A DNA stretch of 64,000 nt, taken from a virus. Positions 44,794 through 64,000 of the stretch are shown here, piece by piece. The DNA is taken from IMG/VR virus record IMGVR_UViG_3300017782_000001; one strand, written 5' to 3'. How positions within the stretch are numbered: the first letter of the stretch is position 1; each line of letters starts with the position of its first letter. The position numbers were made by a program, and so were the translations under genes. The notes under the pieces were generated by a model. The model was not told the origin of the DNA. It made no database searches and worked only from the letters and a program-made list of their open reading frames with translations.

Positions 44794-45213
44794 TTAGCCC
44801 TGAACCAGGAATTGCCAGCCGTTAGTGTCTCCGGACCAAACAAGTTGTAGGCCAATACCCATTGTATCGACAAGAATATCAGAATCTTGACCAAGAATCT
44901 TGTCTGAAGATGAAATTACCAAATGATTAGTTTGGAATTTTTGTTTTACGTCTACAATGTTTACTCTACCATCGCCAACAGAGTTACCAGATACACTTGG
45001 TAGTGTTATTGTAACTTCGCCGGTGGATGTATCTACAAAGTATCCATTATAGTTTGCTGCAGTTAAGTCTGAATCGATCAAAGACCATGCAATAGGAGGC
45101 TCAATTGAGTTTACCGCTTTAGCGATATAAGCGAGCTGTTCCGGACTTGCAGATGCGATTGACGTCTCAAGCTTGTTGACTAGCGCTGTCTTTACGGTAT
45201 CAACGGTTGCCAT
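44794..45213 (-). CDS. small virion/fibre-associated protein
   Basis: GYFVDTS...TITLP...LVW....GW pattern of fibre beta domains. Confidence 0.65.
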   Translation of the reverse strand: MATVDTVKTALVNKLETSIASASPEQLAYIAKAVNSIEPPIAWSLIDSDLTAANYNGYFVDTSTGEVTITLPSVSGNSVGDGRVNIVDVKQKFQTNHLVISSSDKILGQDSDILVDTMGIGLQLVWSGDTNGWQFLVQG

Positions 45214-48200
45214 TTCTTATTCCTCTCTTAATTTTTTTGCCATCTAAAAGTTCTTTAGCGTCAAAGCCAATATATTGTTCAAACGCTATTTCTCCGGTTT
45301 GGCCTGTCCCCGGTAACGTTACAGTTCTGTTCTTATAAATTTGATCATCAACATAAGTTTTGACTGCAAATTCTGTTGGAACAGCGCTATTCGAAGCTCC
45401 CGACAAATTAGGATCTGCCGAGAATTCATTAATTGTTTCACCTAGCTTAGCTCCAATGGAACCAAGTCTCAATGATGTAAGACCTGCAAGGTCGAAGGCA
45501 GATGCATCTAGTGTTGCTCTACCAGTCGCCTGATCAATTCGGAAATAGTTACCTACTCTAAAGTTACCGTCTTGGTCAGTTGATACGTAAAAGACTCTTC
45601 CAGCACCTTTTTCTATAACCTCATTTCCTTGAGTTTTAGAGTAACCCGTTAAAGGAGAATTCGGATAATTAGTATTAGTAGCATTACCAGTACCAATATT
45701 TAAGAAATCATGGCCAGTTAGTCTTGTCTGAGAGTATCTATAACGAACTCTCGATGTTTGTCCGTGGAACGCTGGACTAGTAGCAAGCTTTTGTTGAGCA
45801 AATACTAGAGTAATTCGTCCACTTGTTGAATCCCAATCTTGTGTAGATTGAATAACATATGTAAATGAGTCATAACCTGAATCTGATGGATTACCTCCTG
45901 AAGTTACAAATTCAACCGATCCACCTTCAAGTGGTTCTGAGTCAAATCCTTCAAAGGCCATTGTAAATCCATACTGTCCGTGCGCAGTATCAGAGTCTAT
46001 GAGGATAGAATATACATTACCTCCAGATTCTTGAATCGAATCTCCTGACTTAAATCCAGATCCATCAATTTGATTTTCGACAATTAATCTTTGGATTGAA
46101 GTTAGTGCAGCAATGACTTTGCCTCTGGTTCCTTGATAAACCGCAGTACCTGAATCAAAATCTCCACCGGAATCTGTGAACTTTGCAGCTCCACCAGTTA
46201 CATAAGCACTGTTTCCTGAAGCATCATATGTAGGAGGATCAACAAGAGTAATTTCTTGGAAAAATCCAGCCGCCGAAGTGCTTTTACCTGAAGCCACATA
46301 GAGAGGACCTGTTTGTGCAGAATCAATAGTGATTTTATAAGCAAAGCTGTTTTTAGTGCCAGTAGCTCTTGAGTTAGTAACACCTTTTATAACTTCGCCG
46401 GTGTAATTACCAGCTGACCACTGACTTGAATCAGAAGTTGTTAGATAGAAAGGATTAAATCCTGTTGAGCTATCCAAAGTAAAGTAATATCTTGAACCTC
46501 TATACAACTGGAAGCCTGAGTCTCCAGTAATATTATAATCAGTTCCTACACCAATACCGCTTAAGTTAAATCCTGCTGAATCACCTGTAACTGTCCAGTA
46601 TTCATTTTCAGCTGTTCTTAGTGAGAAGTCGTTTGAAGTAATACTATCAACTAAGAAATACTTGTTGTTAACTTGACTCATACCAGTTACGCTTGAAACA
46701 TTGATAAGGTTATAGCTATCAAAGTTATGCGAAGCAACTGTAACAACAGCCGGATTAGATCTAGTAATATCAGTAATTGATGCGTTAGTTACACTTTTAC
46801 CGCCACTAAATCTTGTATCAAGAAGACTTGTTGCATTAGAGTCATTATATAAAGAGAAGTTAAAACTATCGACTTTTCTAATATGATACTCAAGTCCATC
46901 TGCAATACCGGCATCATTACCAATATCCGAATCCCAAAGACCAGAATCAGGCGATACATCATTAACATATCTATTTTTTAGAGAAGCAAGCCTAACTCTA
47001 TCATTATCTACAAGACCATGAGCAACTCTGGTTTTAACTACTCCTGGATTTGCTCTTGTAATAGTATCAATTGAAATGTTTTTATTAGGCTGGCGAATGA
47101 TATCACCATCTTCAAACTCACCATTTGTAATTGATCCATCTTTATAATCTATGGCAAATCCTCTAACAGTCCCATCATTTGATGTTTCATTAGAATCAAA
47201 GCCTGCTGACACAGCACCATATGTACCATATGAGTTGTTACCATTCAATGCTCTAATTTGTCCGCCAGAAGATGTAGCATAACCAATGTGACAATAATAT
47301 GTAAAGCAAGAAACAATTTCTGCTCTACCATTATTTCTTACCCAAAAGCCAATTCCATCTGAGTGTAAGTTAGTAAATGCATGAAAAACCATTGAGGCAT
47401 TTGTGCTTGAATCTGATTGTCTAGCAGCATCAAAGTGGCCACCGTCAACAATAGCACCAATTCCTCCGGTTGAAAACGCCGAGCAATCTTTAATATACGG
47501 TGACTTTGTTGAAATTGCAAAGTTTGGATCAAGCTTAAAGTAAGCGCCTTTTCTTCCAGTTGACAATTCAGGATTTTGATCATCGCCAGAATCTGGAACA
47601 AATCCAGTAAGACCTCTAAATGTCATACCTTCAACTAATGTAGCATCTCTCATAAAGAACATGGCATCAGCTGAATCATATCCTGGTGAAGGCTGAACTC
47701 TTGTAGTTCTTAAACCTTGGCCATGCATAGTAGTGTTATGAGGAATATGGATTGGAAGAATTTCTTTATAATCGCCATTAGCAACAAGAACAGTTGTTGA
47801 TGAATCCTTCGTAATATTTTTATCGATAAAGCGCATTGCAAAGTTAATTGTCTTAAATGGCGCATTAGCAGATTTACCATAATCGGAATCATCAGTACCA
47901 GCATCAACAGAAATATAGAATGTATTTTTTGTATCGTCTGGATATGAAAGTGAATATCCAGAAGCTGTGCTATTAACTGTAATTACTTTACCAATATCAG
48001 ATGAATCAATTACTGGAAGAATATTGTCTCCGCCTGCAACAAAAAGATCAAAGAAAGAATCTGCTAAATCATTAGCAAAGTTTCCTGTTGAAGTAAAATC
48101 TTGTTTTGCAATATAAACTGATGTTGCTGTACTAACCAAATCATCTATTAGGTATTCAGAACCTGATGCATATGCACCTCTGAATCTAATACCTGAATTA

Positions 48201-49285
48201 TACTTTTCCCAATTTCCATTTGCAAGATCTGAGTCAAAGTTTGAAGTAGAAGCATGAGGAAGAATAGAAATATAGTTATTTCCTCCTCTATTAACAACTA
48301 CATCAATACCGTATTCAACGCTTGAGTCCCAATCTGCTTGATAATCAATACCTGGAACAACCTTTGTCCAATTTGCAGTTACTGTAGGCTTAACATTCAA
48401 GCTGTTTGTAGCAGCTTTGAAAACAGATCCACCATACCTTACAGTATCACCTGTATAGTATTGTGTAGTATCGGCCCAATCACCATTGAAATTAAATCCT
48501 GAAACTACTAGCGACCAGCTTGCACTATCATTAGGATCTGTGCCTGCTACTGTTTGTCTTGCTCTATAAAGATCACCACCAAATTTTACAAGATCATTTG
48601 TAAAATACGTTGTGGCTGAGTCAAAACCGCCATCAATAAATTTAGTACCGCCAACATAAAGTTCCCAATATGTTGAGTTTGTTGGAACAATTCCGGCAGT
48701 AGTATTTTGTTTAGCTTTATAAAGGTTGGCACCATATCCTACAACGTCATCTTTCTTATAGACTGTAGCTTGGTTCCATACACCTTCATTGCCAATGCCG
48801 CTAATGAAAGGATCCCAATATGTATTATTTGTAGGATCATTCGATGTAGAATTTTGTTTTGCAATATAAGCAGACCCGCCGTATTTTACAACGTCATTTG
48901 CTTGATAATCAGTACTGGAATCATAGGAACCTTCCCACTGAATACCATCAACAAACTGAGACCAGTAGGAACTATTAGAACCTAATCCTGGATTTTTATT
49001 TGTTGACTGCGTTTGTGCAATGTATACTTTACCACCGTATGATACGCCATCACCGATGTTATAGCTTGAAGATGAGTCCCATACACCATCGAATGAGAAA
49101 CCTTCAAGCATTAATCTCCAATACGTAGTAGCCGTTGGAACGTTACCACTCGTTTTGAGATTGTAAATGTATACGTATACGTTACCGCCATATTTTACGA
49201 CATCATTTTGTTCGTAGGTTGTGGAGTTGCTCCACTGGCCGGCAAAGTAGAATCTTAATTTTCCTAGATCTATAACTTGTGTCAT
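45200..49285 (-). CDS. long fibre/spike: eight CBM5/12-like repeats plus pectate-lyase-like beta-helix region
   Basis: W....Y...D.V.YGG..Y...W repeats; APFKTI..A, GDYKE.LPI, GQGLRTT; STDQDGNFRVG. Confidence 0.8.
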   Translation of the reverse strand: MTQVIDLGKLRFYFAGQWSNSTTYEQNDVVKYGGNVYVYIYNLKTSGNVPTATTYWRLMLEGFSFDGVWDSSSSYNIGDGVSYGGKVYIAQTQSTNKNPGLGSNSSYWSQFVDGIQWEGSYDSSTDYQANDVVKYGGSAYIAKQNSTSNDPTNNTYWDPFISGIGNEGVWNQATVYKKDDVVGYGANLYKAKQNTTAGIVPTNSTYWELYVGGTKFIDGGFDSATTYFTNDLVKFGGDLYRARQTVAGTDPNDSASWSLVVSGFNFNGDWADTTQYYTGDTVRYGGSVFKAATNSLNVKPTVTANWTKVVPGIDYQADWDSSVEYGIDVVVNRGGNNYISILPHASTSNFDSDLANGNWEKYNSGIRFRGAYASGSEYLIDDLVSTATSVYIAKQDFTSTGNFANDLADSFFDLFVAGGDNILPVIDSSDIGKVITVNSTASGYSLSYPDDTKNTFYISVDAGTDDSDYGKSANAPFKTINFAMRFIDKNITKDSSTTVLVANGDYKEILPIHIPHNTTMHGQGLRTTRVQPSPGYDSADAMFFMRDATLVEGMTFRGLTGFVPDSGDDQNPELSTGRKGAYFKLDPNFAISTKSPYIKDCSAFSTGGIGAIVDGGHFDAARQSDSSTNASMVFHAFTNLHSDGIGFWVRNNGRAEIVSCFTYYCHIGYATSSGGQIRALNGNNSYGTYGAVSAGFDSNETSNDGTVRGFAIDYKDGSITNGEFEDGDIIRQPNKNISIDTITRANPGVVKTRVAHGLVDNDRVRLASLKNRYVNDVSPDSGLWDSDIGNDAGIADGLEYHIRKVDSFNFSLYNDSNATSLLDTRFSGGKSVTNASITDITRSNPAVVTVASHNFDSYNLINVSSVTGMSQVNNKYFLVDSITSNDFSLRTAENEYWTVTGDSAGFNLSGIGVGTDYNITGDSGFQLYRGSRYYFTLDSSTGFNPFYLTTSDSSQWSAGNYTGEVIKGVTNSRATGTKNSFAYKITIDSAQTGPLYVASGKSTSAAGFFQEITLVDPPTYDASGNSAYVTGGAAKFTDSGGDFDSGTAVYQGTRGKVIAALTSIQRLIVENQIDGSGFKSGDSIQESGGNVYSILIDSDTAHGQYGFTMAFEGFDSEPLEGGSVEFVTSGGNPSDSGYDSFTYVIQSTQDWDSTSGRITLVFAQQKLATSPAFHGQTSRVRYRYSQTRLTGHDFLNIGTGNATNTNYPNSPLTGYSKTQGNEVIEKGAGRVFYVSTDQDGNFRVGNYFRIDQATGRATLDASAFDLAGLTSLRLGSIGAKLGETINEFSADPNLSGASNSAVPTEFAVKTYVDDQIYKNRTVTLPGTGQTGEIAFEQYIGFDAKELLDGKKIKRGIRNGNR
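48030..49240 (-). repeat. eight approx. 50 aa tandem protein repeats (bounds approximate)
   Basis: visible in translation. Confidence 0.85.
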
Positions 49286-49862: not shown

Positions 49863-49889
49863 TTCTAAACCTTTTTAATTTCCTGATTG

Positions 49890-49897
49890 TATTTATA
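49890..49897 (-). promoter_or_regulatory. late promoter TATAAATA
   Basis: exact consensus. Confidence 0.8.
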
Positions 49898-49910: not shown

Positions 49911-52900
49911 TTATAATCCTATGAATGCTAATAATTGTGCACGTTTTGCTGCACCCGCAACAGCAGTTTCAAGAGCTTTAACTGAAGCTTGTTTAAGAGC
50001 ATTAGAATCTGATGCATCAACAACCAGAATTAAATCAGAATCAATTGAAAAGTCTGCGTTTGAAAGTAAAGGTTTACTTGTTACAAATGCTGGAGATATA
50101 GAAAACTTAGAAACTGAATCATAAGAAACGTCTCCAAAATTTGCTTGATTTTCAAAGTGCTTAAATACATCATCTGCAACTGGCCCTTGATAATTAATTT
50201 GTCCTGTTGCACTATTATACGTAAGACTTCCATCACCGCCTGAGTCTATTACGCTTATTGCATGTCTTGCATCTGAATCGTTATATTGTAAAGCACCAGA
50301 TAATCTTATTTCGTTTGCTGAATCATTATATGTTGCAGTTATATTAGTGTGATTACTATGAGTAAGAGAAGATGCAACAGCATCTTGTGCTCTTTCATTT
50401 GTAAAGTAGAGATTAGTAGTTCCTTCTGCTAATGAATCTGTTGTCGCATCATTAAAGTCAGAATCAAAATTAACACTATTATATTGAGCACCCGGAGCAA
50501 AAGTAAATTGGCCGGTTGCACTATCATAACTAAAACCAGGGCCTGTTGCACTAAATATGTTTCTTGTGTCAGCTGAGTCTAAGATATTTGGCTTGCCAGT
50601 TAATGAGGCATATGCAAAATCTTGTAAAGGTGATATGTTTAGAATATATGCAGAATCAATTAAGTTAATTGCATCAGCAGAATCAAGGAAAGGTGCTTCA
50701 GCTACCCTTGCCAAAACATATGCACTATCAACTGCATCCACAATGGTGTTGTTAATTGTTACTTGTACAGCATTACCAGAATCGCTAATTGAAGCAGCGA
50801 CATCACTATCAACACGTGCTTTGGTATAATAAAGATTTGTGCCTTCAGGCAATTGCCCAGTATTTGCTAAACCTAAATCAGAATCAAAGTTTGCTTTTGT
50901 ATAAACTGATTCAACATCAAAGGTAAACTGACCAGTAGTAGAGTCGTATGTTAAATCTCCACCAGCACTAAAGTGAGCTCTTACTTCTGCAGGAGTAGGA
51001 CCGCTGTAAGTCATTATTCCAGTTGCTGAATCGTAACTGAATGAACCGTCACCACCAGCGTCTACTGAACTAAAGTGAGCTCTTACTTCTGCTGAACTTG
51101 GTCCAGTGTATGTGATAAGACCAGTGTCACTGCTATATGTTAGACTTCCATCACCGCCATTATCAACAAAACCAATTGCGTGTTTAGCATCAGAGTCTGT
51201 TCTAGCCTGAGTGTAGTACTTATTTGTTGAACCTTCTGCTAAAGAGTCAGTAGAAAGATTTGATATATCACTAACTTGACCAGTTACGTTACCTGTAACA
51301 TTACCAATAAAACTATCGGCTTGAATATTTCTATTAAATACAAATCTTTCATCAGCATGTGAATATGTTAATGATGGCTTATTAACAATATTGGATCCAC
51401 CTACCGTAATACCTGCGCCATGCATTGCTGAGCTATCAGCAGCACTGTCAGCAAGCACAATGTTTTTATCATTGATACTTACAGTAGTAGAATTAATAAT
51501 TGTTTGAGTACCTTCAACCTGAAGGTTACCGAGAATTTTAACAGTACCAGTATTATCACCAATAGCTGCTGGATCAATTATGAATTCTGCAGGACCACGT
51601 AGCTGACCGGTTTGAGTAATATTTTGAAATCTAACATTACTATTTGAGTCTAATGCTTGATTTGTTGTAAATTTTCCTGTAGAAGAATCATAAGTTAAAC
51701 TAGCACCAGCACTAAAATGAGATCTTACTGAATCTGGTGTAGCTCCAGTGTATGTAATAACACCAGTAGTTTCATTGTATTCAAGTGAACCATCACCACC
51801 AGCATCTACAACACTAATGGATCTCTTTGCATCACTATCAGCCCTTGCTGTAGTGTAATATAAATTTGTTCCTTCTGCAATAGAATCTGTCGTTGTTGAA
51901 AGTAGTCTAACTCTAAAGTCAGAGTCAAAATTAGCTGCGGTGTATATTTCCTCGACATCAATCGAGAATTTTCCTGTTGCGGAATCATATGTTATGTCGC
52001 CGCCTGCGCTAAAATGTTCCCTTACATTGGCTGCACTAATGCTACCGGTAAGTGTTCCTGCTAATGTGATGTTGCCACCTACATTAAGATTGGAATCAAC
52101 GGTAAGGTTATCTCTAATTCTTGAAGAATCTGTTACATCTAATGTGCTTTGTAATGTTACACCTTGTCTTACAGTGAGAGTACCATCAACTAACGCATTT
52201 GAATCAACAAAGATATTACCACTAATAGTAATACCGGAATCTGTTGTTGTTAGTCTTCTGTCTCCATCTCTGTAATTAAGCTGAACGCCTCCGGAATCTC
52301 CGGCAATAATAAGTTGTTGTCCGCCTGATATATTATTAGCAGAAGTAATAACAAGATTAGAACCTATCCTAGGTGTTATTTCAATAGCACCATAGTTGTT
52401 TTCTATTTGAAGATTGTTATCACTTTCTTTTATTGTGGAAAATTTGTTTCCTGTGCCAAAGCTAATATTTTGTCCGTCAGGTAAAGCTATACCTTCGTGA
52501 TATGTCGAACGGAAATCGGTTCTGCCAAAGTTGGAATCATTGAAGGTAAAGATTCCTGTAGCAGAATCGTAAGTAAAGTCTGTGCTATCTTGGCCTGTGA
52601 CCTGACCAGAAATAAGCTTTCTTGTTTCTGGTCCAGTAAATAAAATTGTGCCTGTCGCAGAATCATACGTGATATCACCATCACCGGCGCCAGACGAATC
52701 TTTTCTTGCAGATAAAACCCCGCGAATATCCGAAGTGTTAACACCTTGGAAATTAAATGTACCGCCAATAGAATCAAATGCAAGTGATGCAAAGTCACCA
52801 GTGCTATTAACTGAAACATTTTGTCCAATAGCCTGAGCTAAGCTTACGTGTTTGAATTTTGATTGTGCAGAATCATAGCGAAGAAATGATCCTTCGCTTA

Positions 52901-53075
52901 AGTTATTACTTCCATCTACATCTGAAAGATTGACTAAGAAACCTTGCGCAGCAATGCCTGTTTTAATTGGCGTACCAACAACGACTTTCTTTACGATAGT
53001 CTTATTGCCAGGAACAACAACTTTAGTTACTTGACGTACTCGTGTTTTCCCTGCACTTACAATGATTTCAGCCAT
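49911..53075 (-). CDS. repeat-rich tail fibre/virion structural protein
   Basis: repeated TDS(L/I)AEG..NLYYT..R and GGDGSL.Y...TG..TY.GP..EVRAHFS units. Confidence 0.8.
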   Translation of the reverse strand: MAEIIVSAGKTRVRQVTKVVVPGNKTIVKKVVVGTPIKTGIAAQGFLVNLSDVDGSNNLSEGSFLRYDSAQSKFKHVSLAQAIGQNVSVNSTGDFASLAFDSIGGTFNFQGVNTSDIRGVLSARKDSSGAGDGDITYDSATGTILFTGPETRKLISGQVTGQDSTDFTYDSATGIFTFNDSNFGRTDFRSTYHEGIALPDGQNISFGTGNKFSTIKESDNNLQIENNYGAIEITPRIGSNLVITSANNISGGQQLIIAGDSGGVQLNYRDGDRRLTTTDSGITISGNIFVDSNALVDGTLTVRQGVTLQSTLDVTDSSRIRDNLTVDSNLNVGGNITLAGTLTGSISAANVREHFSAGGDITYDSATGKFSIDVEEIYTAANFDSDFRVRLLSTTTDSIAEGTNLYYTTARADSDAKRSISVVDAGGDGSLEYNETTGVITYTGATPDSVRSHFSAGASLTYDSSTGKFTTNQALDSNSNVRFQNITQTGQLRGPAEFIIDPAAIGDNTGTVKILGNLQVEGTQTIINSTTVSINDKNIVLADSAADSSAMHGAGITVGGSNIVNKPSLTYSHADERFVFNRNIQADSFIGNVTGNVTGQVSDISNLSTDSLAEGSTNKYYTQARTDSDAKHAIGFVDNGGDGSLTYSSDTGLITYTGPSSAEVRAHFSSVDAGGDGSFSYDSATGIMTYSGPTPAEVRAHFSAGGDLTYDSTTGQFTFDVESVYTKANFDSDLGLANTGQLPEGTNLYYTKARVDSDVAASISDSGNAVQVTINNTIVDAVDSAYVLARVAEAPFLDSADAINLIDSAYILNISPLQDFAYASLTGKPNILDSADTRNIFSATGPGFSYDSATGQFTFAPGAQYNSVNFDSDFNDATTDSLAEGTTNLYFTNERAQDAVASSLTHSNHTNITATYNDSANEIRLSGALQYNDSDARHAISVIDSGGDGSLTYNSATGQINYQGPVADDVFKHFENQANFGDVSYDSVSKFSISPAFVTSKPLLSNADFSIDSDLILVVDASDSNALKQASVKALETAVAGAAKRAQLLAFIGL
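50967..51092. repeat. 24 bp direct repeat (50967-50990, 51069-51092)
   Basis: actaaagtgagctcttacttctgc twice, encoding AEVRAHFS. Confidence 0.85.
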
Positions 53076-53090: not shown

Positions 53091-53441
53091 TCAAGTAACG
53101 CCAGGCGTTACTGTAATTTGTCCTTCAAGGATTCTTTCGATCACCGTGTTTGTATTACTATCTTGGAAAGAGATCTCTACATCATATACGTATCGTCCAT
53201 TTTTTAATGCAGCAGTAGTAGCATTATTTAGTGTTAGTTCTACTATACCATCAGTTTCGGGAGAGATAACTGACGATGTAAATACTGTTGCATCTGAATC
53301 AGGCGTGTTATAAGTTTTTTTCATTTTTGCTGCAACAGAATAGTCTAGCAAATTTTTCTTATTACCGTCAATGTCGACAAGCTCTAGCTTTATCGTTACA
53401 TCTGTACCTTGATCTATTGTGATTTCTTCTTGCTGTGCCAT
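53091..53441 (-). CDS. small Ig-like/BppU-like virion protein
   Basis: IDQG, GRYVYDVEI, RILEGQITVTP.VT. Confidence 0.75.
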   Translation of the reverse strand: MAQQEEITIDQGTDVTIKLELVDIDGNKKNLLDYSVAAKMKKTYNTPDSDATVFTSSVISPETDGIVELTLNNATTAALKNGRYVYDVEISFQDSNTNTVIERILEGQITVTPGVT

Positions 53442-53473: not shown

Positions 53474-53481
53474 TATTTATA
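53474..53481 (-). promoter_or_regulatory. late promoter TATAAATA
   Basis: exact consensus. Confidence 0.75.
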
Positions 53482-54082
53482 CCCCAAAGATCATGAACCG
53501 TGTATAACCATCAAGCTTAAGTTCGCATTCTTTAAGTATTCTTAACTTTACTGAATTTGAAAAATCATGAACAGACCCTTTAGAATTAATATGATCTTCA
53601 TGACCATGCATATTATTTGAAGTTAAGCAAACTAAAGTGCTTTCATTTTTTTTAGAAAGAAAGTTGTTTAATGTTTCATCTGTGATATGCTCGCATGAAG
53701 GCAATACAATAATATCAAAGTGTTCATCATCTGGATTCCAATCTTCTATTTTACCCCACGTATGTTTAATCTTAGGATACATCCAACCGCCAATAGGTTG
53801 ACACATTGGATCTTTGTCCATTATACATACTTTATTAGGTTTTATTTTAGAAGTTCTAATCATATCACCTACTAGGCCAAACCACCCGGCGTGAATTAAA
53901 ACATTAGGATTTACAAGTTCTTTCATTTCGCACATGTCAGCCAATTCAAGAGTCAACCACTTTTTGGTTGCCATTTGATTTTCATTTACATGGTTAGCTA
54001 TAGATAAAGCTAAGTCAACATTGTGCGGCCATTGACGCAATGCAGTGTCAACAGATTTAAGAGCTTCTTTGTAATAGGACAT
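53477..54082 (-). CDS. class I SAM methyltransferase-like protein
   Basis: VLIHAGWFG, MDKD, SCEH, NNM...DHIN, RFMIFG. Confidence 0.65.
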   Translation of the reverse strand: MSYYKEALKSVDTALRQWPHNVDLALSIANHVNENQMATKKWLTLELADMCEMKELVNPNVLIHAGWFGLVGDMIRTSKIKPNKVCIMDKDPMCQPIGGWMYPKIKHTWGKIEDWNPDDEHFDIIVLPSCEHITDETLNNFLSKKNESTLVCLTSNNMHGHEDHINSKGSVHDFSNSVKLRILKECELKLDGYTRFMIFGV

Positions 54083-54085
54083 AGT

Positions 54086-54979: not shown

Positions 54980-55739
54980 AAATGTAGGTGAGCATATGTC
55001 TTCAACTGATTATAAAAAAAATCAGTTTAAGAAATACAAACTACACTTAGAAACAAAACAATTAGAATACGCAACAAAAGTTAGCGCTGATTATAAACTA
55101 TACATTATAAAAGAAACCGACTACGATAAAATTCAATTTATGAAACTAAATAAACTTGAAGAATTATCAAAAATATATGACGAAGTTTTGTATTTAGATT
55201 TTGATGTAATCCCTCAAACAGATGTCAACTTTTTTGAATACTTTGATATGAATAAAATTAACGCCTATTCTATGTCTAGAACTCCTGGAGCAAATGAATT
55301 AAAGTGGAAGTTTCAAGCAAATGACTGGGATAGAATGAATGTATATGCAAAAACTTGTGCTAAAAAATCAATGTTAATTTTAGAAAACATGTCTGGCAAT
55401 GATACAATGATTAACACAGGAGTTATTGGAGGTAATCGTAAAGCAATCCAAAACTTAAATTTTAGTAAAAGATTGCCTGAAGCATATAAAGTTTTTGAAG
55501 AATCGTGTATTGATAATCTATATCCAGAAGAAATTTCAAGATCTTGGAGACCTAATAACGAAGTGTTTATATCATGGATGATAGAAAAATATAATGTACC
55601 TTACACAAATATTGGCATGGCCTGGAATTTTATGCTTGACGATTATGCGCCTCGAGGAGGAGAATCATCGCACTTTTTACACCACATAAAAAAAGAATTT
55701 GATATTACCTTTGGAGAAATAGATGAAATGGAATCCTAA
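54942..55739 (+). CDS. GT-A fold glycosyltransferase (paralog of preceding gene)
   Basis: YDEVLYLDFDV, INTG, NNE, WNF, H.IKKEFD. Confidence 0.75.
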   Translation: MILSRIIYSLYSENVGEHMSSTDYKKNQFKKYKLHLETKQLEYATKVSADYKLYIIKETDYDKIQFMKLNKLEELSKIYDEVLYLDFDVIPQTDVNFFEYFDMNKINAYSMSRTPGANELKWKFQANDWDRMNVYAKTCAKKSMLILENMSGNDTMINTGVIGGNRKAIQNLNFSKRLPEAYKVFEESCIDNLYPEEISRSWRPNNEVFISWMIEKYNVPYTNIGMAWNFMLDDYAPRGGESSHFLHHIKKEFDITFGEIDEMES

Positions 55740-56787
55740 TTCAATAAAGGTTTTTCTTGACATATCAACTTATTGTAATGCTGGTTGTCCTCAATGTCAT
55801 AGAACAAGCGAAAACGGTTTAGGTAAAACCGATTGGCTGCCACTAATACAATGGGATCTTGATATGTTCAAAAAAGCATTTCCTCCTAGTGAAATGATGC
55901 GTATTAAGATATTTAAGTTTTGTGGAACATGGGGCGATCCGGTTATGTGCAAAGACTTAGATAAAATTTTTGCATATATTATTGATAACTCAGACACTTT
56001 AATTTCTATGGATACAAATGGAAGTATCCGAAATGCTGATTGGTGGTGGGATATAGGTGTTAAGTGTAGATCTAGATTAGAAGTTATATTTGATATTGAT
56101 GGAATCAATCAGGAAATGCATGAAAAATATAGAAGATTTACTCACTTAAGTAAAGTTCTAGAAAATATGGATATGCTTAGTCAGACTACATCATTAGTAA
56201 AATCTCAAACTATTTTATTTAAGCACAACCAAGAATATAAAAGTGAAATTAAAAACCTAGTTAAAGCACATGGATCTATTGCTCACGCATTTGTAATTAG
56301 TGATAGATTTAGAGGTAAAGAAATTAGATCATTTATTAATGAACATGGAGAAGAAGATTGTTTAGAAGCTGCTGACAGAGAAGTATTGCCGGATGGAATA
56401 ATTGCTGGAAGTACAGACAGATATAATTCTTATGAAATAAAATGTAGATGGGCTTTGCCGAGAAACGAAATTGTAGTTAACCCTGATGGTCAAATTATGC
56501 CTTGTTGTTTTCACGCAAACGCACACTTTTGGCAAAGACACGATCCTGTATATAAAAACAGCAAAACAGCATTAAACTTAAATGCTGTTTATAGCGAAGA
56601 CTATAATAGAAATTTGAAGTCTTATAATGTACTACATACGAAATTATCTGAAATATTAAATTCAGACTGGTTTACAAAAGCTTTACCAAATAGTATAAAA
56701 GGTAATGATCCAATTGGCCAATGTGTTAGAAATTGTTCTAATAGACAAAAGAAAACTCATCAGATTAGAGAATTACATGCACCTTGA
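55723..56787 (+). CDS. radical SAM protein with SPASM/twitch-like C-terminus
   Basis: CNAGCPQC, GTWGDP, TNG, DG.IMPCC, C...C. Confidence 0.92.
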   Translation: MKWNPNSIKVFLDISTYCNAGCPQCHRTSENGLGKTDWLPLIQWDLDMFKKAFPPSEMMRIKIFKFCGTWGDPVMCKDLDKIFAYIIDNSDTLISMDTNGSIRNADWWWDIGVKCRSRLEVIFDIDGINQEMHEKYRRFTHLSKVLENMDMLSQTTSLVKSQTILFKHNQEYKSEIKNLVKAHGSIAHAFVISDRFRGKEIRSFINEHGEEDCLEAADREVLPDGIIAGSTDRYNSYEIKCRWALPRNEIVVNPDGQIMPCCFHANAHFWQRHDPVYKNSKTALNLNAVYSEDYNRNLKSYNVLHTKLSEILNSDWFTKALPNSIKGNDPIGQCVRNCSNRQKKTHQIRELHAP

Positions 56788-57358
56788 TAGAATTATTGTA
56801 GTTAACACTGGCACAAAATATAGTGAGTGGTACGTCAATAACATAAAGCATATGATTGATACGTATTCTAATTTAGAATACGATGAATTTGTGGTGATAA
56901 AAGAAAACAAATACGATCTTCAGGTTGCAAATAAACTTATTATGTTTGATAAGTTTCGCACTGGAACAAATATTTATTTTGACTTAGATGTTATTATAAA
57001 AGGAGATTGCAATAGGTTTTTGTCAAACTCATTAAAAGTTTGTTGGGCCTGGTGGAGAGATGCATGGCACACACCACTAAATTCAAGCATTATATCTTGG
57101 ACCGGTGATAGAAGTGATGTGTTTAAGTTGTGGGATCAGAATCCAGATTACTATCAGTTGAAGTATTATCTAGGGATTGATCAATATTTTCATGAGATGA
57201 TTCGTCCGAATCTAAACTTTCATTGGTATGGTTATTGCTCGTATCAGACAGAGTTTCGAGATTTACCGGAGTATCCTGTTGTTCTGATGAATCAGAATCA
57301 TCAGAAGATGCTTCAGCCTGGGTGGTGGCAGGAGTATTTGCTGCACGAGCCTCAATAA
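56777..57358 (+). CDS. small GT-A fold glycosyltransferase
   Basis: GTKYS..YV, YFDLDVII, NSSI..W, GIDQYF; start re-set to ATG 56777. Confidence 0.75.
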   Translation: MHLDRIIVVNTGTKYSEWYVNNIKHMIDTYSNLEYDEFVVIKENKYDLQVANKLIMFDKFRTGTNIYFDLDVIIKGDCNRFLSNSLKVCWAWWRDAWHTPLNSSIISWTGDRSDVFKLWDQNPDYYQLKYYLGIDQYFHEMIRPNLNFHWYGYCSYQTEFRDLPEYPVVLMNQNHQKMLQPGWWQEYLLHEPQ

Positions 57359-57833
57359 CAATTTCTGTAGAAATATTAACGGCTTCAAGTAAAGTCGGAG
57401 CTTTTCTTAATTTAGATTTAAGAGCTTTATTTTTACTATTCATAATTTCTTCATTTTCAAATAAAGCAATTTTAATTAAGAAAAGTTTTTCTTTATGGTC
57501 TTCTGCGTCAAAGTCAATAAAGATAGATTTAAGTAGAACTTCATATAGTTTACTATTTAGATCATCCACATCATAAATTAAGCCTTGATCTTTTGCAATT
57601 GCAATAACATCTTTTTCATAATCTTCCTGCATCACTTTCATACGCTTATACGTATTTTCATGTAGCTGATCTTCGGTTACTATTTCCAAAAGATCTTGAT
57701 AAACCTTTTGTGATTTATCAGCTTTCAAATATTCAACGTATGCGTCTTCATCATTATCAGGATTTACATAAACCACTTCTATAGTATTTCTAGTGTCGTT
57801 TGTAAAATATGCGTTATAAAATTGATATGTCAT
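57123..57833 (-). CDS. hypothetical protein with S/D/T-rich tail overlapping the convergent GT
   Basis: starts 2 nt after upstream gene; ordered N-terminal approx. 160 aa. Confidence 0.75.
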   Translation of the reverse strand: MTYQFYNAYFTNDTRNTIEVVYVNPDNDEDAYVEYLKADKSQKVYQDLLEIVTEDQLHENTYKRMKVMQEDYEKDVIAIAKDQGLIYDVDDLNSKLYEVLLKSIFIDFDAEDHKEKLFLIKIALFENEEIMNSKNKALKSKLRKAPTLLEAVNISTEIVIEARAANTPATTQAEASSDDSDSSEQQDTPVNLETLSDTSNNHTNESLDSDESSHENIDQSLDNTSTDSNLDSDPTT

Positions 57834-58780: not shown

Positions 58781-58783
58781 CGA

Positions 58784-59311
58784 CTAGCTCCCCGGAGATC
58801 TTAGTGTCTTTACTATCGTTCCCGCAGAATCTGTAATTGTGAGAGTAACAGTCGAATCAAACTTCGATGACTGAATAGTGTTGTCTGCAATTTTACCATT
58901 TGTAATTGCAAAGTCTTGAACCATAGCAGTTGTAAGACTGAGAGATCCAACATGAGTTGAGTCAATCGCATCAGTAGCAATAATAATACCTGTGACAGCA
59001 TCAAGCTGAAGCTTTAATGTACCTACTGATCTTGCTTGAATAGCATTTGAATCAACTGCTAAATCCCCAAGATTAATTGAATCTACTGGAAAATATAAAC
59101 CGTAAAAAGAATCTAAGTTTGAATCAATCATACGATTGATTTCAGCAGAGTCCTTAGAGTTAAGGTTGATTTCGTTAATAGCTTCAACGAGGTCAGAGTC
59201 TGCATCTGTTGCAAGCTCGTCAAGATCGCCAAAGTAATTACTTAACGTATTGGTTTTGGTGCGCCAATCATCTACGAGATCATCAATTTCAATTTTAATT
59301 CTACGTGCCAT
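58784..59311 (-). CDS. virion structural protein (fibre-like)
   Basis: WR.KTN, LVEAINE, 10-residue periodic repeats; 9 DS dipeptides. Confidence 0.7.
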   Translation of the reverse strand: MARRIKIEIDDLVDDWRTKTNTLSNYFGDLDELATDADSDLVEAINEINLNSKDSAEINRMIDSNLDSFYGLYFPVDSINLGDLAVDSNAIQARSVGTLKLQLDAVTGIIIATDAIDSTHVGSLSLTTAMVQDFAITNGKIADNTIQSSKFDSTVTLTITDSAGTIVKTLRSPGS

Positions 59312-59531
59312 TTTTATCTACCAATATTTTGAGCAAATTTTTTATCTCACCTATTTCATTCTTTAAGTTATTTATATCATTTTCCATTTGTTTTTTTTTC
59401 TTCTTAGCAGCCCTGGCAACGTTACCATCTTCACTTTTAGATCTAACAATAGCATTAGATCTCATATCTCTTTTCCAGCCAGGATGACCTTCAATGTCAA
59501 CAAATCTTCCAAATTTATTTTCTGCGTTCAT
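59301..59531 (-). CDS. small coiled-coil protein
   Basis: EGHP...RD..SNAI, coiled C-terminus; follows the DUF4815-like gene. Confidence 0.75.
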   Translation of the reverse strand: MNAENKFGRFVDIEGHPGWKRDMRSNAIVRSKSEDGNVARAAKKKKKQMENDINNLKNEIGEIKNLLKILVDKNGT

Positions 59532-62500
59532 TATGCGCTCAGTGCTATCACTCTTAAATCAGTAAATTGAGGAACCGAAGCATTGTTAGAACTGTTCATA
59601 ACAATCTTAAGCATAAACTTCGAGAATGGTGTTGATAGTCCGTCTTCTCCACCCACTAAATATTCATAATCTCTAAAGATTGAAGGATTTTCATCTGTTG
59701 GTTGATCAACTTCTTTTATAACTTCTGTCCAGGGAGTATCCGAAAATAGTATATCTTCACCAATTGCTTTATAGTAAACTCTAAAGTTAGAGGCTGAAGG
59801 CCGGTTAGCTGCTAGCAAAATTTTAAGGCCAATGGCATCATTTTCTAGAGTTACTGGTCTAGTAATATGCTTAGCAAGAGATGTTCCGTTTTGAGAGTTA
59901 GTTTCATCAACATACGTTATAGGATTATTTCTATCAGCAGAATCACCATATTGGCTTTGGAAATCAATTCTATTATGAATTGTCCACATAGAAGCTCGTT
60001 GCATATCAATCACTGGAGAAACATCAGGACTTTGTGATATCATATTTAGTTTTAGTGTTATAGCTTTTTCAAGTCCTAGGTTATTAACTCTTTGTTCTTT
60101 AGAAGGAATAATTTGAGGAACGTTAAAGTAATTGTTTTCTCTTCCTGCCAAAGTTAAATATGTAGTTGCCTTTGTGTATTTTGTTTCATTACCAGCAATA
60201 GACCGTCCTGTAGTAAATCTACCGGTAGGTGTAATCCTAGTAGAAGTAGGCACCAGAGTATCGATAGCTGGAACAACTTGTTCAAATAGTTGCTGTTTTG
60301 ACATTGCTACTAAGTTGTTACCAATAATTTCACTATTGGTTGCATCTGAATCAAAGTCTACTTTGAAGAAATCATTATCTGCACTATCGATTGCGCGGAT
60401 ACCCATAATAGAAGAACCTAAGATTCCTGCGTATCTAGCAGATGAGTCAAGTCCGGTGATCATAACCTGATCACCATCAGTAAACCCATGATCAGGGTGG
60501 AATACTGTAGCTGCTGGTGACCCACTAGTTACATCAATAGGATCAGTTGTTAAAAGGTTTATTGATGGATCTGCATTTTCCAATATTGCTTCAGCTGTTG
60601 AATGTCTAAATCTAGCTGTGTGCAATTCAAACGCCATATCAATTGTTTGATCTGGTTCCCAAATAAATGAGTTTTGAGATTTGAAAAATGAACCTAGTGT
60701 TGGTTGCTGTGTAATTCTTCTTTCAGTAGATCCAAGAATAAATTCACCTGTTTTACCAATGTAAACGTTATATTCAATTGTTTCAGCTTTTAGAACAAAT
60801 GCATATTCAGTATACGAATTCAGGTAAATAGGCTCATCAAATTCAAAGTAGGTGATAGCAGTACCATCAGCAGATATATTCACATCAGCCGGATCCTTAA
60901 ATACTACACCTCCCGGCAATACTTGGTATGCCGCAGGAGCACCTTCAACAGCAGGCCTTAGTTCTAGTTGAACCGGAACAATTGGATCTTTTGAAGCAAA
61001 TCTTACACCAACCTTTGTACAGAAAATACCATCTGGCCTTGGAACATAGAATGTTTGAGCGATAGGATCACCACCGCCGCCACCATCACCACCTTCGCGG
61101 CCACCGTCATCAGGTGGATCTGGAATTCTTCTTACAGATCTTGCAGTACGTGTATCAGTTCTAATATTTAAGCTTCTTGTTGATCTAATAGTTTGTTGTC
61201 TAGTTTCAAGAATACCGTTTGCCTCATATGAAGCAAATGCTCTTGAAGTAGAATCTGCAGGCTTTGGAACTGTAATGTCCAAAAGCATAAACTCTCTTCT
61301 ACCTGTTCTAAATTTTTGAACGCCATTAGGAATGAAGAAAGATCCTTCAATTTTACCAGTCTCATCTGTAATAAGAGTAGACTTACCTTCAGGATGCTCA
61401 GTTGCATTATTGTGTCTAGACCCAAATTGAGTAGGATCATCTGAAGTTCTTTGGAATGTTTCTTCTCTTACCCATTGAGAAATATCTTTTTCATCAAAGT
61501 AAGGGAATAGTCTTGTTTCCGGTTTTAAGCCTTCAGCCTTAAAATAAATTTTCCTAGATCTCATAAACGGAATAACTGCAACATCCAAAACTCTATCGCC
61601 AATAACTTCACGAATAGTTTCACCTTGAACAATTCTAGTAACTGAAGTCGTAGTTGTAGTGGTTATAGTACGACCGCTTTGACTAGATCCTGACGAAACT
61701 GAACGACCTAGTTGTCTACCAGCAAGATTAGAAAGATCTGTTCCACCCCACTGCCATTCCCAGTTATTCCAAAGATTTTGCTGTGCAGGATTAAGTCTGA
61801 ATCCTCCATCTACAATTCTTGGTGGTACTCTTTTTACTTCACGCCAATCGTCTGATTGTGGTGAAAGAAGAACTCGACCTGTATGAGTAATAACTGCAAA
61901 CGGGTTAACGTTAATTGTACCAGAATATAAAGGCTGATCAATAAACTTTAGATCATCATATTTAATATAAACGTTATCGCCTTTTTTAATTGTATTGGTT
62001 GACTTATCTGAGTCATAAACAAAACCGATTTGATCTTCATTAAACGAAGGTCTAACTATTCCTTCTCTTGGATCAATCGCTGCAGCGTATTCTGGACTAT
62101 TAACTGCTGATGCTAGTTGATCAGAAAAGTTATCAACTAAAAATCCAGCTTTAGTTCTATCAGCACCTGTTGAATCAAAAACACTAAATGTTCTTAGATT
62201 TGTTTCTAAAGCATTAAGCGTAGCTATTTCTTCTAATTGATCGATACGAGTTTCAAGTTTACCAATGTCTGCCATTGTAAATACTTTTGTCTCAATAAGA
62301 TCAGTGTCAGTGTCTGAATCATTTAGAGTAAAAGGATTTAGCTTAAGCTTATAAAGCTCTAATGAATTTTCTGGTGTTTCTGGAAATCTTGGTGAAAGAT
62401 CTGATTGACCAGGAATGATTTCAATTAATCCAGTTTCTTTGATAATGAGTTTATCATATCTTGGCATATAAGTTTCTTGATCAAATCTAATCAAAGAGTT

Positions 62501-64000
62501 AGGCTTTGGTAGCTCGTTAATACGAGCAGTACCACCAGCAAAGTCAAGCGCATCGTCTTTCAATCGAGGACGGAAGTCTAATACATCTCTTAAATTAACT
62601 ACAGTTCCATTTGACAATTCGTGGTTTGGAATGTCAGCATAATCTACTTGTCCAGTATATGAGTTAACTGCAAAGAAATCGCCAGATGCACCATGTGTAA
62701 AATATGAAAATGAGCAGAAAACGTTACCAGCAGGTTCCGCCGCACCTTGCTTAAGAATTAGTCTAGCTGGCGCATAAAAATTGTCTCTTTGTCCATTGTC
62801 AACAATAAATCTACTTGAAATATCTGTGCCATCAGATTCACCATCAGCAATAAGCACTACCTTAAACAAATCTGGTTTAGCAAGATCTAGTACGTTATTT
62901 GAATCCAATGTAGTTTTAATAAAGGTTCCATTGGTTGCTAAACCCTTTGGTCCAGTTGTAGGAGGAGAATTTAGAGTTTTAGATCTAACAGTACCTTGAG
63001 ATTTATCAACTTTAGTTAATAACTCAAAGTTTGTTGTTGTTGGTCCGCCTGAAATATTAATAGTTGCTGTGCCAGTACCAGTGATAGTCACATCATTATT
63101 AGTAAGCATTTTACCACTTGAATCAATAGTAAAAATCCACTCAGATGGAGAAGCGAAAGTTTCACCGTTTGCTGTTAACGTAAGTGTTTCTGATCCAGAA
63201 AAGTCAAACTGTCCAGTAAAGTATCTTTGTACTTCAAGACTAATATCTGTAATTTGCTTAGGTCGACTATTTGGAAGAGGGAATAGAAGATTATTATTAA
63301 TAGCTCCTTTAAGTTCAGTTTCACCTCGTGTTTGCCTAACGTTAACATAGTCTGAAGTTGAGCCACCAATTGATTTGACATCACGAAATGATTTACCGCT
63401 ATTCATTGAAATATCAAAAAGATAGTACTTATAATCTGCACCATCTTCTTCAATATATCTTGCTCTTGCAGTACCAATTGTTGCGCCTAAGTGATTAGCA
63501 GAATCTCTTAAATTTCTAACTTGATAGGCGTTTAGATTAGGAAGCCTCTTAAACATCACCTCTAGTCTTGGATCGTTTGTTGAGTCAAGTTCAACAAAGT
63601 TACCAAAGTTTGCAGCAACAACCTGGTTATTAAGATCAGTAGTTTCTTGTGCTTTATTAATAGTAATTGTTTTAGGAATCATGCTTTCAGCGCGATAGCC
63701 ATTAACATAAGCCACACCAGCAGAAACATCTACATCAAGTTTAGTGTTATCAGAATCATTCTCGTCAAATTTAACTCTAAACTGCTTAGCACTAAAGTTA
63801 CCATTTGTTTCATATGCTCTTTGTGAAACATAGTCTGCAATTTTTGCATATTGATTTGTTCCATTTGCAAATTCAGAAACGGAACCATTAATTACATTAG
63901 CATAAAAAACAAAATTTTCATCAGAATCAACATTGGCTTTGTCAATTAACTCTAGTCTAATTCTATATCGATCAGCACCTGCTGCTGCCTTATTAGGAAT
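59531..64000 (-). CDS. large virion structural protein (DUF4815/VrlC-like), 5'-truncated by window edge
   Basis: same frame reads AGADRYRI at the window edge; GFLVDNF, DPIAQTF, GSFFKSQN, DLRVIAL. Confidence 0.88.
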   Translation of the reverse strand: MPNKAAAGADRYRIRLELIDKANVDSDENFVFYANVINGSVSEFANGTNQYAKIADYVSQRAYETNGNFSAKQFRVKFDENDSDNTKLDVDVSAGVAYVNGYRAESMIPKTITINKAQETTDLNNQVVAANFGNFVELDSTNDPRLEVMFKRLPNLNAYQVRNLRDSANHLGATIGTARARYIEEDGADYKYYLFDISMNSGKSFRDVKSIGGSTSDYVNVRQTRGETELKGAINNNLLFPLPNSRPKQITDISLEVQRYFTGQFDFSGSETLTLTANGETFASPSEWIFTIDSSGKMLTNNDVTITGTGTATINISGGPTTTNFELLTKVDKSQGTVRSKTLNSPPTTGPKGLATNGTFIKTTLDSNNVLDLAKPDLFKVVLIADGESDGTDISSRFIVDNGQRDNFYAPARLILKQGAAEPAGNVFCSFSYFTHGASGDFFAVNSYTGQVDYADIPNHELSNGTVVNLRDVLDFRPRLKDDALDFAGGTARINELPKPNSLIRFDQETYMPRYDKLIIKETGLIEIIPGQSDLSPRFPETPENSLELYKLKLNPFTLNDSDTDTDLIETKVFTMADIGKLETRIDQLEEIATLNALETNLRTFSVFDSTGADRTKAGFLVDNFSDQLASAVNSPEYAAAIDPREGIVRPSFNEDQIGFVYDSDKSTNTIKKGDNVYIKYDDLKFIDQPLYSGTINVNPFAVITHTGRVLLSPQSDDWREVKRVPPRIVDGGFRLNPAQQNLWNNWEWQWGGTDLSNLAGRQLGRSVSSGSSQSGRTITTTTTTSVTRIVQGETIREVIGDRVLDVAVIPFMRSRKIYFKAEGLKPETRLFPYFDEKDISQWVREETFQRTSDDPTQFGSRHNNATEHPEGKSTLITDETGKIEGSFFIPNGVQKFRTGRREFMLLDITVPKPADSTSRAFASYEANGILETRQQTIRSTRSLNIRTDTRTARSVRRIPDPPDDGGREGGDGGGGGDPIAQTFYVPRPDGIFCTKVGVRFASKDPIVPVQLELRPAVEGAPAAYQVLPGGVVFKDPADVNISADGTAITYFEFDEPIYLNSYTEYAFVLKAETIEYNVYIGKTGEFILGSTERRITQQPTLGSFFKSQNSFIWEPDQTIDMAFELHTARFRHSTAEAILENADPSINLLTTDPIDVTSGSPAATVFHPDHGFTDGDQVMITGLDSSARYAGILGSSIMGIRAIDSADNDFFKVDFDSDATNSEIIGNNLVAMSKQQLFEQVVPAIDTLVPTSTRITPTGRFTTGRSIAGNETKYTKATTYLTLAGRENNYFNVPQIIPSKEQRVNNLGLEKAITLKLNMISQSPDVSPVIDMQRASMWTIHNRIDFQSQYGDSADRNNPITYVDETNSQNGTSLAKHITRPVTLENDAIGLKILLAANRPSASNFRVYYKAIGEDILFSDTPWTEVIKEVDQPTDENPSIFRDYEYLVGGEDGLSTPFSKFMLKIVMNSSNNASVPQFTDLRVIALSA

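Follow-up and report, generated by a model that had tools for sequence, protein, structure and literature searches.

The dipeptide Asp-Ser (DS) is strongly enriched in distal tail proteins encoded by a 64,000-nucleotide stretch of viral DNA (IMG/VR record IMGVR_UViG_3300017782_000001; the whole stretch is referred to as the window). The source is a T4-like, uncultured marine phage. The enrichment is specific for serine, conserved among relatives, bimodal among homologues, and co-distributed with particular genes. The explanation we favour, with a probability of about 0.4, is that DS is a lineage-specific serine modification tag and that the modification would most likely be O-glycosylation by an operon outside the window. 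DS had first been noticed by a model that read the letters without database searches (the sequence-only reading), which proposed that a dense glycan coat is written onto the virion at DS sites by enzymes encoded in the window itself.

Asp-Ser excess in four tail proteins

Four proteins encoded in the window are DS-rich:

49911-53075, minus strand: 1,054-amino-acid (aa) tail fibre
45200-49285, minus strand: 1,361-aa tail fibre, with CBM5/12-like repeats at the N terminus and with a beta-helix domain
58784-59311, minus strand: 175-aa protein, adjoining the VrlC-like gene
43875-44765, minus strand: 296-aa Cys/Gly-rich protein

Expected DS numbers were obtained from shuffled sequences, which controls for composition. 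The 1,054-aa fibre has 42 DS compared with 11.0 expected (z-score [z], 10.4; observed/expected ratio [O/E], 3.8), and the 1,361-aa fibre has 33 compared with 11.8 expected (z 6.9; O/E 2.8). The excess was also found in the 175-aa protein (9 versus 2.2, z 5.0) and in the 296-aa Cys-rich protein (5 versus 0.8, z 4.9). The counts of 42, 33, and 9 in the sequence-only reading were exact on recount. Its claim that unrelated folds are affected, and specifically by DS, also stands: DS was the top outlier of all 400 dipeptides in each of the four unrelated proteins. The reverse dipeptide, Ser-Asp (SD), was rarer, as had been said, with 15 in the 1,054-aa fibre and 9 in the 1,361-aa fibre, and its count in the enriched proteins matched expectation.

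In the 1,054-aa fibre, Ser follows 42 of the 93 Asp residues (45%), and Asp-Thr (DT) occurs 2 times compared with 9.4 expected; the 1,361-aa fibre has 6 DT. Eight records encode several DS-rich proteins; pooled over these proteins, the DT O/E was 0.42 to 0.59, compared with about 0.9 to 1.1 elsewhere. Since DT is depleted in the DS-rich proteins, the effect is Ser specific.

The 1,054-aa fibre contains repeat families (Y-D-S-A-T-G, N-F-D-S-D, T-D-S-L-A-E-G, and A-R-x-D-S-D-A) together with about 23 DS contexts that occur only once. In the 1,361-aa fibre, 32 of 33 DS contexts are unique. After sites with similar flanks were collapsed, 25 distinct contexts remained in the 1,054-aa fibre (10.8 expected, z 4.6) and 32 in the 1,361-aa fibre (11.6 expected, z 7.0). 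Repeat amplification as the sole cause was ruled out because the excess persisted, and the check by shuffling and repeat correction suggested earlier thus left the excess in place. A DNA-level motif, such as a GANTC-type methylation site produced by GAY-TCN, was likewise ruled out. The occurrences of GAYTC in the three frames were 34:0:0 in the 1,054-aa fibre and 28:2:1 in the 1,361-aa fibre, with codon frame 0 holding nearly all of them, and both TCN and AGY codons are used for the serine of DS. The frame bias of GAYTC and the mixed serine codons place the signal at the peptide level, as the sequence-only reading had held.

The same reading had spoken of a saturation of virion proteins. This was true of the two fibres, the 175-aa protein, and one Cys-rich protein, and did not extend further. 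No significant excess (z <2) was found in gp23 (4 versus 1.8), gp18 (4 versus 3.3), gp15 (3 versus 1.3), gp14 (3 versus 2.6), or five of the six Cys-rich paralogs. The DUF4815/VrlC-like protein was marginal (14 versus 8.8, z 1.9), and its homologues were DS-normal in all genomes examined. Among relatives, L005 (98 to 99% identical) has the same single Cys-rich paralog DS-rich, the homologue of the 296-aa protein in the related genome G009 has 5 DS compared with 1.4 expected, and homologues of the 175-aa protein are enriched in L008 (246 aa, 14 versus 3.6), G009, and L024. A separate observation concerns G015, in which the gp15 tail-sheath stabiliser (14206-15000, L212) is itself DS-rich (7 versus 2.0, z 3.8).

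Distribution and context of the Asp-Ser sites

Among homologues of the 1,054-aa fibre, those of Roseobacter phage CRP-207 and of the Synechococcus phages S-ShM2, S-CAM7, and S-MbCM100 lack the enrichment, and the aligned DS sites in these phages hold NS, DT, DD, TA, or SE. The best 120 metagenomic homologues of this fibre all had an O/E of 1.8 to 4.0 in a word-based search, which is biased toward DS-containing relatives. The family of the 1,361-aa fibre is bimodal, with an O/E of either 2.1 to 4.0 or 0.2 to 1.5: 6 of the 80 IMG/VR loci with a 1,361-type fibre are DS-rich and 74 are normal, and 1,054-type homologues in the DS-normal loci are normal too. Same-fold relatives without the glycan genes are DS-normal, the opposite of the refuting condition set in the sequence-only reading, an enrichment shared equally with relatives that lack glycosyltransferases (GTs). 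A general property of fibre folds was ruled out since homologues are DS-normal, and environment is unlikely as a cause because rich and normal phages share one sample (3300020438).

When the 1,361-aa fibre was aligned with its homologues, five homologues of the rich clade retained DS at 0.43 to 0.81 of the sites, compared with 0.21 to 0.42 for any dipeptide, while six homologues of the normal clade retained it at 0 to 0.04, compared with 0.22 to 0.28 for any dipeptide. This alignment indicates that DS is under purifying selection in the rich clade. The normal clade holds variable polar loop residues at those sites (NT, DT, AT, SA, or NG, mostly ending in Thr or Ser), and the hydrophobic or aromatic residue ahead of the sites is kept in both clades. 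In sister genomes, two fibres without homology to the window are also DS-rich, one of 1,328 aa in G016 (53 versus 14) and one of 1,413 aa in G023 (30 versus 13). The trait is set at the level of the genome, not of the fold.

A tree of portal proteins places the window in a well-supported clade with G009, G015, G016, G017, and phage C48C1 (63 to 70% identity), separate from the group of the Pelagibacter phages HTVC008M and Mosig (51 to 53% identity). The core genes of G009 (152 kb) deserve a comment, as gp23, the 1,361-type fibre, and the GT8A-type gene described below are each split into two ORFs (open reading frames; e.g., 110764-112094 and 83056-87244), which looks like assembly frameshifts rather than biology.

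The DS motif can be written as [W/Y/F/I/V]-D-S-[A/D/N]. Aromatic residues are enriched at position -1 (W 4.3-fold, Y 2.9-fold, and F 2.7-fold). The +1 residues of 89 DS sites are A (22), D (13), S (12), G (12), N (9), I (5), T (5), and F (5), with few V or L, and Ala is the most enriched (3.1-fold). DS was mapped onto predicted structure, as had been proposed earlier. In the AlphaFold2 (AF2) model of residues 1 to 720 of the 1,361-aa fibre (predicted local distance difference test score [pLDDT], 83.5), 12 of the 14 DS are in coil, where they mostly follow directly on a strand with an aromatic residue at its end; the remaining 2 are at or immediately before a short helix. The model suggests that DS sites are exposed-type positions. 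The bimodality, the conservation, the location in coil, and the non-homologous DS-rich fibres together show a clade-wide, Ser-specific constraint on exposed positions of unrelated distal tail proteins.

Such a constraint might also be met by a bare serine. Asp-Ser after a hydrophobic residue could be a structural or assembly motif fixed in the clade, forming a strand-exit turn (Asx or Ser/Thr turn) or a helix N-cap, driven perhaps by a clade-specific fibre chaperone or trimerisation pathway that prefers DS. A candidate for such a factor is encoded just upstream of the 1,054-aa fibre:

53091-53441, minus strand: 116-aa gene, likely fibre assembly factor

This gene is directly ahead of the 1,054-type fibre in L006/L007, L020, L022, L024, G009, Mosig, and HTVC008M, and in HTVC008M the homologue carries the annotation "L-shaped tail fiber protein assembly." It always precedes the fibre, which would fit a structural role, and so would the position of DS after conserved aromatic or aliphatic residues at strand ends or at helix starts (D-S-A-E-I-N, D-S-A-Y-V-L). 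The normal clade has Ser or Thr at the second position in about 70% of the sites, so the hydroxyl group is ancestral; a single origin in the portal tree would suffice, and other proteins do not avoid DS. However, the same folds function without DS in many phages, and Thr, which can usually stand in for Ser in turns and caps, is the residue that is depleted. Unrelated folds (CBM-like repeats, beta-helix, the helical 175-aa protein, the Cys-rich protein, and non-homologous fibres) have shifted together, and the 116-aa gene is also present in the DS-normal phages Mosig, HTVC008M, and C48C1. We consider the structural explanation less likely than a modification tag; it fares best among the alternatives.

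It is much less probable that aromatic-Asp-Ser forms small binding sites for host-surface sugars or for Ca2+/Mg2+, serving reversible, multivalent attachment or keeping the fibre stable in sea water, with the aromatic residue as a platform for the sugar and Asp and Ser as hydrogen-bonding partners. The aromatic residues at -1 would agree with this idea, and four DS are located at the first aromatic residue of the CBM5/12-like repeats. But DS-normal homologues conserve the aromatic residue just as well, rich and normal phages occur together in sample 3300020438, and we know of no minimal sugar site of the form aromatic-Asp-Ser. As for metal binding, the 1,054-aa fibre has repeated V-D-x-G-G-D-G-S-L-x-Y loops (residues ~420 to 460 and 625 to 690) with weak calmodulin/EF-hand matches (E 0.014), which suggests Ca2+-binding loops; these are distinct from the DS sites. 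A sequence search of the Protein Data Bank with the fibre gave only weak EF-hand-like matches, unrelated to DS.

Candidate modification genes

The genes that match the trait best were found outside the window. In G009, a syntenic relative of the window, a 199-aa ORF has a weak match to PF01973, the Maf family (15.1 to 15.2 bits compared with a cut-off of 34.6, which by sequence places it outside the family). It is the last gene of a seven-gene operon with the order GT8-like, sulfotransferase, methyltransferase, GT25, GT25, GT8-like, and 199-aa Maf-like protein. The PF01973 search gave no match in G003, G004, G005, Mosig, or HTVC008M and a weak one in G009 only; the Maf-like subfamily was then traced by homology from the G009 match with a hidden Markov model (HMM).

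The AF2 model of the 199-aa protein has a pLDDT of 92.9. Its top structural match in VIA-align is Magnetospirillum Maf (5MU5_A; Z 11.3, 167 aligned residues, root mean square deviation 3.5), followed by a Campylobacter sialyltransferase (2P56, Z 10.3), and the top match in Foldseek is CstII (1RO8; probability 0.91, E 8e-3). The protein carries the motif G-N-G-D-S. As modelled, it has the nucleotide-sugar-binding core fold of the Maf enzymes and sialyltransferases.

The Maf-like subfamily is present in all assessable DS-rich genomes (G005, G009, G014, G016, G017, G023, and the L024 record, where it was confirmed on the same 185,529-bp contig) and also in G015, whose fibre region is cut off. The complete genomes of Mosig, S-ShM2, S-CAM7, S-MbCM100, and CRP-207, all DS-normal, lack it. 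In the reverse direction, Maf-positive records with a fibre region all have DS-rich fibres (for G028 and C48C1, see below). The operon GT8-like gene (266 aa) and both GT25 genes are present in G009, G014, G015, G016, and G017, and none of the three was found in C48C1, Mosig, or HTVC008M.

Genes that could possibly supply a donor of the cytidine monophosphate (CMP)-ulosonic acid type are found in some of these genomes. The L024 record has a KdsA-like gene (DAHP_synth_1) and a CMP-sugar-synthetase-like gene (CTP_transf_3) about 2 kb downstream of the operon (L267:6425-7835, plus strand), G009 has both elsewhere in its genome (130627-132049), and G016 holds a KdsA-like gene.

The HMM detected no Maf-like gene in the 64-kb window, and a word look-up pointed to a look-alike in the genome to which the window belongs, about 51 kb ahead of the window. 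G003, which is 99% identical to the window and extends 13.8 kb past its start, has neither the operon nor the Kds-like genes. G025, which is from the same sample and has the complete operon, shares no overlapping nucleotide sequence with the window or with G003 or G009. Judged by gene content, the DS trait co-occurs best with the seven-gene operon outside the window.

A related observation concerns gp002 of HTVC008M (L106:752-1306, plus strand), which has the motifs I-G-N-G-E-S and M-Y-G-F-D and adjoins a Nol-like carbamoyltransferase gene.

According to the explanation we favour, this subclade would have rewritten its distal tail proteins to [W/Y/F/I/V]-Asp-Ser-[Ala/Asp/Asn] in surface loops and at the starts of helices, with Asp-Ser as the recognition tag for a phage-encoded, lineage-specific, cytoplasmic, Ser-specific modifying enzyme. 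The most likely chemistry would be O-glycosylation of the fibres before or during assembly. The seven-gene operon, which the look-up places ahead of the window, would be the best candidate machinery: its 199-aa protein of the Maf/sialyltransferase fold would use a CMP-activated ulosonic acid, and the fibre-adjacent GT8-like and DxD genes of the window could extend or tailor the glycan. A glycan coat made via the operon is plausible. A more specific version, in which hydrophobic-Asp-Ser is a two-residue code read by the phage's own cytoplasmic line (a mini Maf-fold starter with CMP-ulosonic acid, extension by GT25 and GT8 enzymes, and decoration by sulfotransferase, methyltransferase, and carbamoyltransferases), so that the host-recognition apparatus is coated with a sulfated and methylated glycan, is doubtful as a whole.

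Several points weigh against modification by the operon. Non-target proteins do not avoid DS, with an O/E of 0.73 to 1.02 in DS-rich phages compared with 0.83 to 0.86 in DS-normal phages, and such avoidance as the signature of a scanning enzyme was thus not seen. Many DS sites are placed where Asp-Ser forms a good turn or helix cap anyway. The known Maf enzymes also act on Thr, and there is no defined sequon for them (PMC11339370). All DS-rich genomes that have a portal gene fall into one subclade (fork 94/95, just under the star threshold of the tree), with C48C1 as sister; since there is one such subclade, the association between genes and trait may reflect a single evolutionary event, and it carries no weight statistically. 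The complete genome of C48C1 has an apparently intact Maf-like gene (43% identity, motifs conserved) and no DS-rich protein, G028 is Maf positive yet has a DS-normal 1,054-type fibre, and gp002 of the DS-normal HTVC008M is a distant Maf-like protein (18.7 bits to the HMM). C48C1 and HTVC008M gp002 show that the Maf-like fold is not sufficient. Finally, the serine modification itself, the enzyme responsible, and the sugar added are all things that we infer.

An alternative source of the modification is closer to the fibres. The window has three GT-A-like genes beside the fibres:

54023-54979, plus strand: GT8A, GT8-like GT-A with a Y-L-D-[LF]-D-V motif
54942-55739, plus strand: GT8B, GT8-like GT-A with a Y-L-D-[LF]-D-V motif
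56705-57358, plus strand: 217-aa DxD protein (Y-F-D-L-D-V), the third GT-A-like gene, without a Pfam match

The pair matches PF01501 with E values of 2.7e-5 and 6.4e-3; GT8A scores 16.5 bits and GT8B 24.3 bits, which equals the cut-off. The two have a conserved DxD-type motif and are paralogs (E ~1e-20 to common homologues). A fused 572-aa protein with a GT8B-like half and a GT8A-like half (L026:2589-4304, plus strand) shows that the two paralogs work as a pair in some relatives. Homologues of the 217-aa protein are found in L008, L020, L022, L026, L027, and Mosig.

If DS were the sequon of these fibre-adjacent GT8-like enzymes (54023-55739), and not of the distant operon, GT8A should follow the trait. 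The GT8 family includes protein-directed enzymes. A GT8A-type gene is found within a few kilobases of DS-rich fibres in the window, L006/L007 (G004), L008 (G005), L024, L026, L027, G009, and G014. None was found in HTVC008M, S-ShM2, S-CAM7, S-MbCM100, or CRP-207, all DS-normal, nor in any of the 74 DS-normal IMG/VR flanks, where absences are confounded by synteny with the query. However, Mosig has a GT8A that is 39% identical with DxD present, together with a homologue of the 217-aa protein, and no DS-rich protein genome-wide. Conversely, G016 (71% complete) and G017 (whole fibre region present) are DS-rich without a GT8A-type gene. GT8A is therefore neither necessary nor sufficient, and we regard its role as the DS-reading enzyme as improbable. 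The three GT-A genes of the window, which the sequence-only reading had listed, do not discriminate between rich and normal phages.

The sequence-only reading had also listed genes for adenosine diphosphate (ADP)-heptose and a GT9-like gene, and these are present:

28821-29246, plus strand: RfaE-II-like gene, ADP-heptose supply
29215-29586, plus strand: cupin
29501-30481: truncated carbamoyltransferase, among the ADP-heptose genes
31718-32599, plus strand: RfaE-I-like kinase
32574-33404, plus strand: HldD-like epimerase
33388-34032, plus strand: GmhB-like gene
34657-36462, minus strand: NodU-like carbamoyltransferase
36462-37472, minus strand: weak GT9-like gene (24 bits compared with a cut-off of 170)

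RfaE domains I and II, GmhB, and HldD are the best NCBIfam matches of the respective genes, all under the curated cut-offs, and no GmhA was seen in the window. Serine heptosylation in the cytoplasm occurs in bacteria, but it is very improbable that the GT9-like enzyme heptosylates the DS serines with ADP-heptose as donor, much as the AIDA/TibC autotransporter heptosyltransferases act on their substrates, and that the carbamoyltransferases tailor the product. The GT9-like/carbamoyltransferase pair adjoins DS-normal fibres in 8 IMG/VR loci (L036, L041, L043, L050, L060, L080, L082, and L096), and four genomes lack the heptose and GT9-like genes, namely the DS-rich G016 (71% complete) and G017 (84%), together with G014 and G015. 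In L080, the pair is accompanied by kinase and cytidylyltransferase genes.

The sequence-only reading was probably wrong about which glycosyltransferases matter. The check that it proposed, whether DS follows a specific GT gene, came out negative for the heptose/GT9 genes and for GT8A; the operon follows DS best, with the limits of one subclade and the exception of C48C1.

Island layout and comparison with known systems

The window encodes a T4-like core, including terminase and gp15 and the following genes:

2790-5258: DNA polymerase gp43
16165-17493: gp23
19972-21519: portal
22117-23838: sheath
26913-28031: gp14

A variable island extends from about 28 kb to 59.5 kb and is bordered by gp14 and the VrlC/DUF4815-like gene. 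Fibres, GT genes, and a radical SAM gene are all found between these borders, and the window thus contains a host recognition cluster as in pelagimyophages and cyanomyophages, spanning gp14 to the VrlC-like gene. Further genes of this region are as follows:

30459-31740, minus strand: ferredoxin-dependent bilin reductase and haem oxygenase, inside the fibre/glycan island
53477-54082, minus strand: 201-aa methyltransferase-like gene (weak match; homologues in L008, L022, L026, L027, and G009)
55723-56787, plus strand: radical SAM/SPASM enzyme (homologues in G004, G005, and G009)
59531-64000, minus strand: VrlC/DUF4815-like baseplate protein, cut by the window end, the boundary of the cluster

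The Mosig counterpart of the first pair is annotated as phycocyanobilin:ferredoxin oxidoreductase and haem oxygenase and is likewise inside the island. The six Cys/Gly-rich paralogs (296 to 421 aa) form an array 3' of the 1,361-aa fibre (38277-44765, minus strand), with a local GC content of 0.43 compared with 0.35, no Pfam family, and the radical SAM/SPASM gene 11 kb away. A 236-aa ORF (57123-57833, minus strand) overlaps the ORF of the 217-aa DxD protein in antisense by 236 bp (57123-57358). The 236-aa protein ends in an acidic, low-complexity tail that is rich in Ser, Asp, and Thr, makes up the C-terminal third, and has 5 DS. Homologues from L008, Mosig, and L020 cover no more than the first ~160 residues of the protein, and the tail may be lineage specific or the ORF may be over-extended. 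A collagen-repeat protein (PF01391, E 7e-38; L006:19497-20912, plus strand) is encoded 3' of the fibres in G002 and G004, two contigs that are DS-rich.

Our literature search found no published description of an Asp-Ser bias. If the proposed reading is true, DS would be the first case of a defined O-glycosylation sequon in the virion of a bacteriophage. Modified serines would mean that glycosyltransferases of the cluster, now read as modifiers of the host lipopolysaccharide (PMC7029224), act on the phage's own fibres. This would change the view of very abundant ocean viruses, from their host range and receptor binding to their decay and their resistance to grazing, and a minimal, portable Ser sequon with a small enzyme set would be useful for glyco-engineering. 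Should the serines be unmodified, it would still have to be explained why loops of unrelated folds were rewritten across the clade, and specifically with Ser, and the bimodal DS index would be a cheap marker for the lineage in metagenomes.

The closest genomic parallel is the host recognition cluster of pelagimyophages and cyanomyophages, a variable island from VrlC to gp14 that holds fibres and GT8-family glycosyltransferases (Zaragoza-Solas et al. 2020, PMC7029224). The same island also carries rfaE, radical SAM genes, 2-oxoglutarate oxygenases, and haem oxygenase/bilin reductase (PMC7029224). Its glycosyltransferases have been read as modifiers of the host O-chain, and an Asp-Ser bias is not mentioned (PMC7029224). 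The window shares this genome architecture. It belongs, however, to a separate portal clade, and the cultured HTVC008M and Mosig are DS-normal.

The sequence-only reading had compared DS with the O-glycosylation sequon of Bacteroidetes, D-(S/T)-(A/I/L/V/M/T), to which glycans are transferred en bloc in the periplasm. An Asp ahead of a hydroxyl residue and Ala as the top +1 residue are common to both. However, the analogy did not hold: the phage sites deplete Thr, about 60% of their +1 residues (D, N, S, G, and F) are outside the Bacteroidetes set, and a periplasmic system would be out of reach for virions assembled in the cytoplasm, where T4-type tail proteins assemble.

AAH and TibC, of the bacterial autotransporter heptosyltransferase (BAHT) family, heptosylate serines of repetitive beta-helical surface proteins in the cytoplasm with ADP-heptose as the donor. 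The window likewise encodes ADP-heptose genes and a GT9-like protein. In the phages, however, the heptose and GT9 genes track DS in neither direction, and the GT9 match is very weak.

[quoted passage not shown] The 199-aa operon protein shares their predicted core fold and the G-N-G-x-S motif, and KdsA-like and CMP-sugar-synthetase-like genes are near the operon in the L024 record. The phage protein differs in being a bare 199-aa core compared with 632 residues, in its PF01973 score (15 bits versus 34.6), in being encoded outside the window, and in having a copy in C48C1 without a DS excess.

The nearest precedent in concept is in mycobacteriophages. Freeman et al., whose study is cited in PMC11256854 among others, are said to have shown experimentally in 2023 that virions of the Che8 and Corndog types are O-glycosylated. 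The concept would be the same, namely phage glycosyltransferases that decorate the phage's own structural proteins in the cytoplasm. The targets in mycobacteriophages are C-terminal tails of capsid and tail-tube proteins, and the enzymes belong to other families, whereas the candidate targets in the window are fibres and outer tail proteins with dozens of internal D-S sites.

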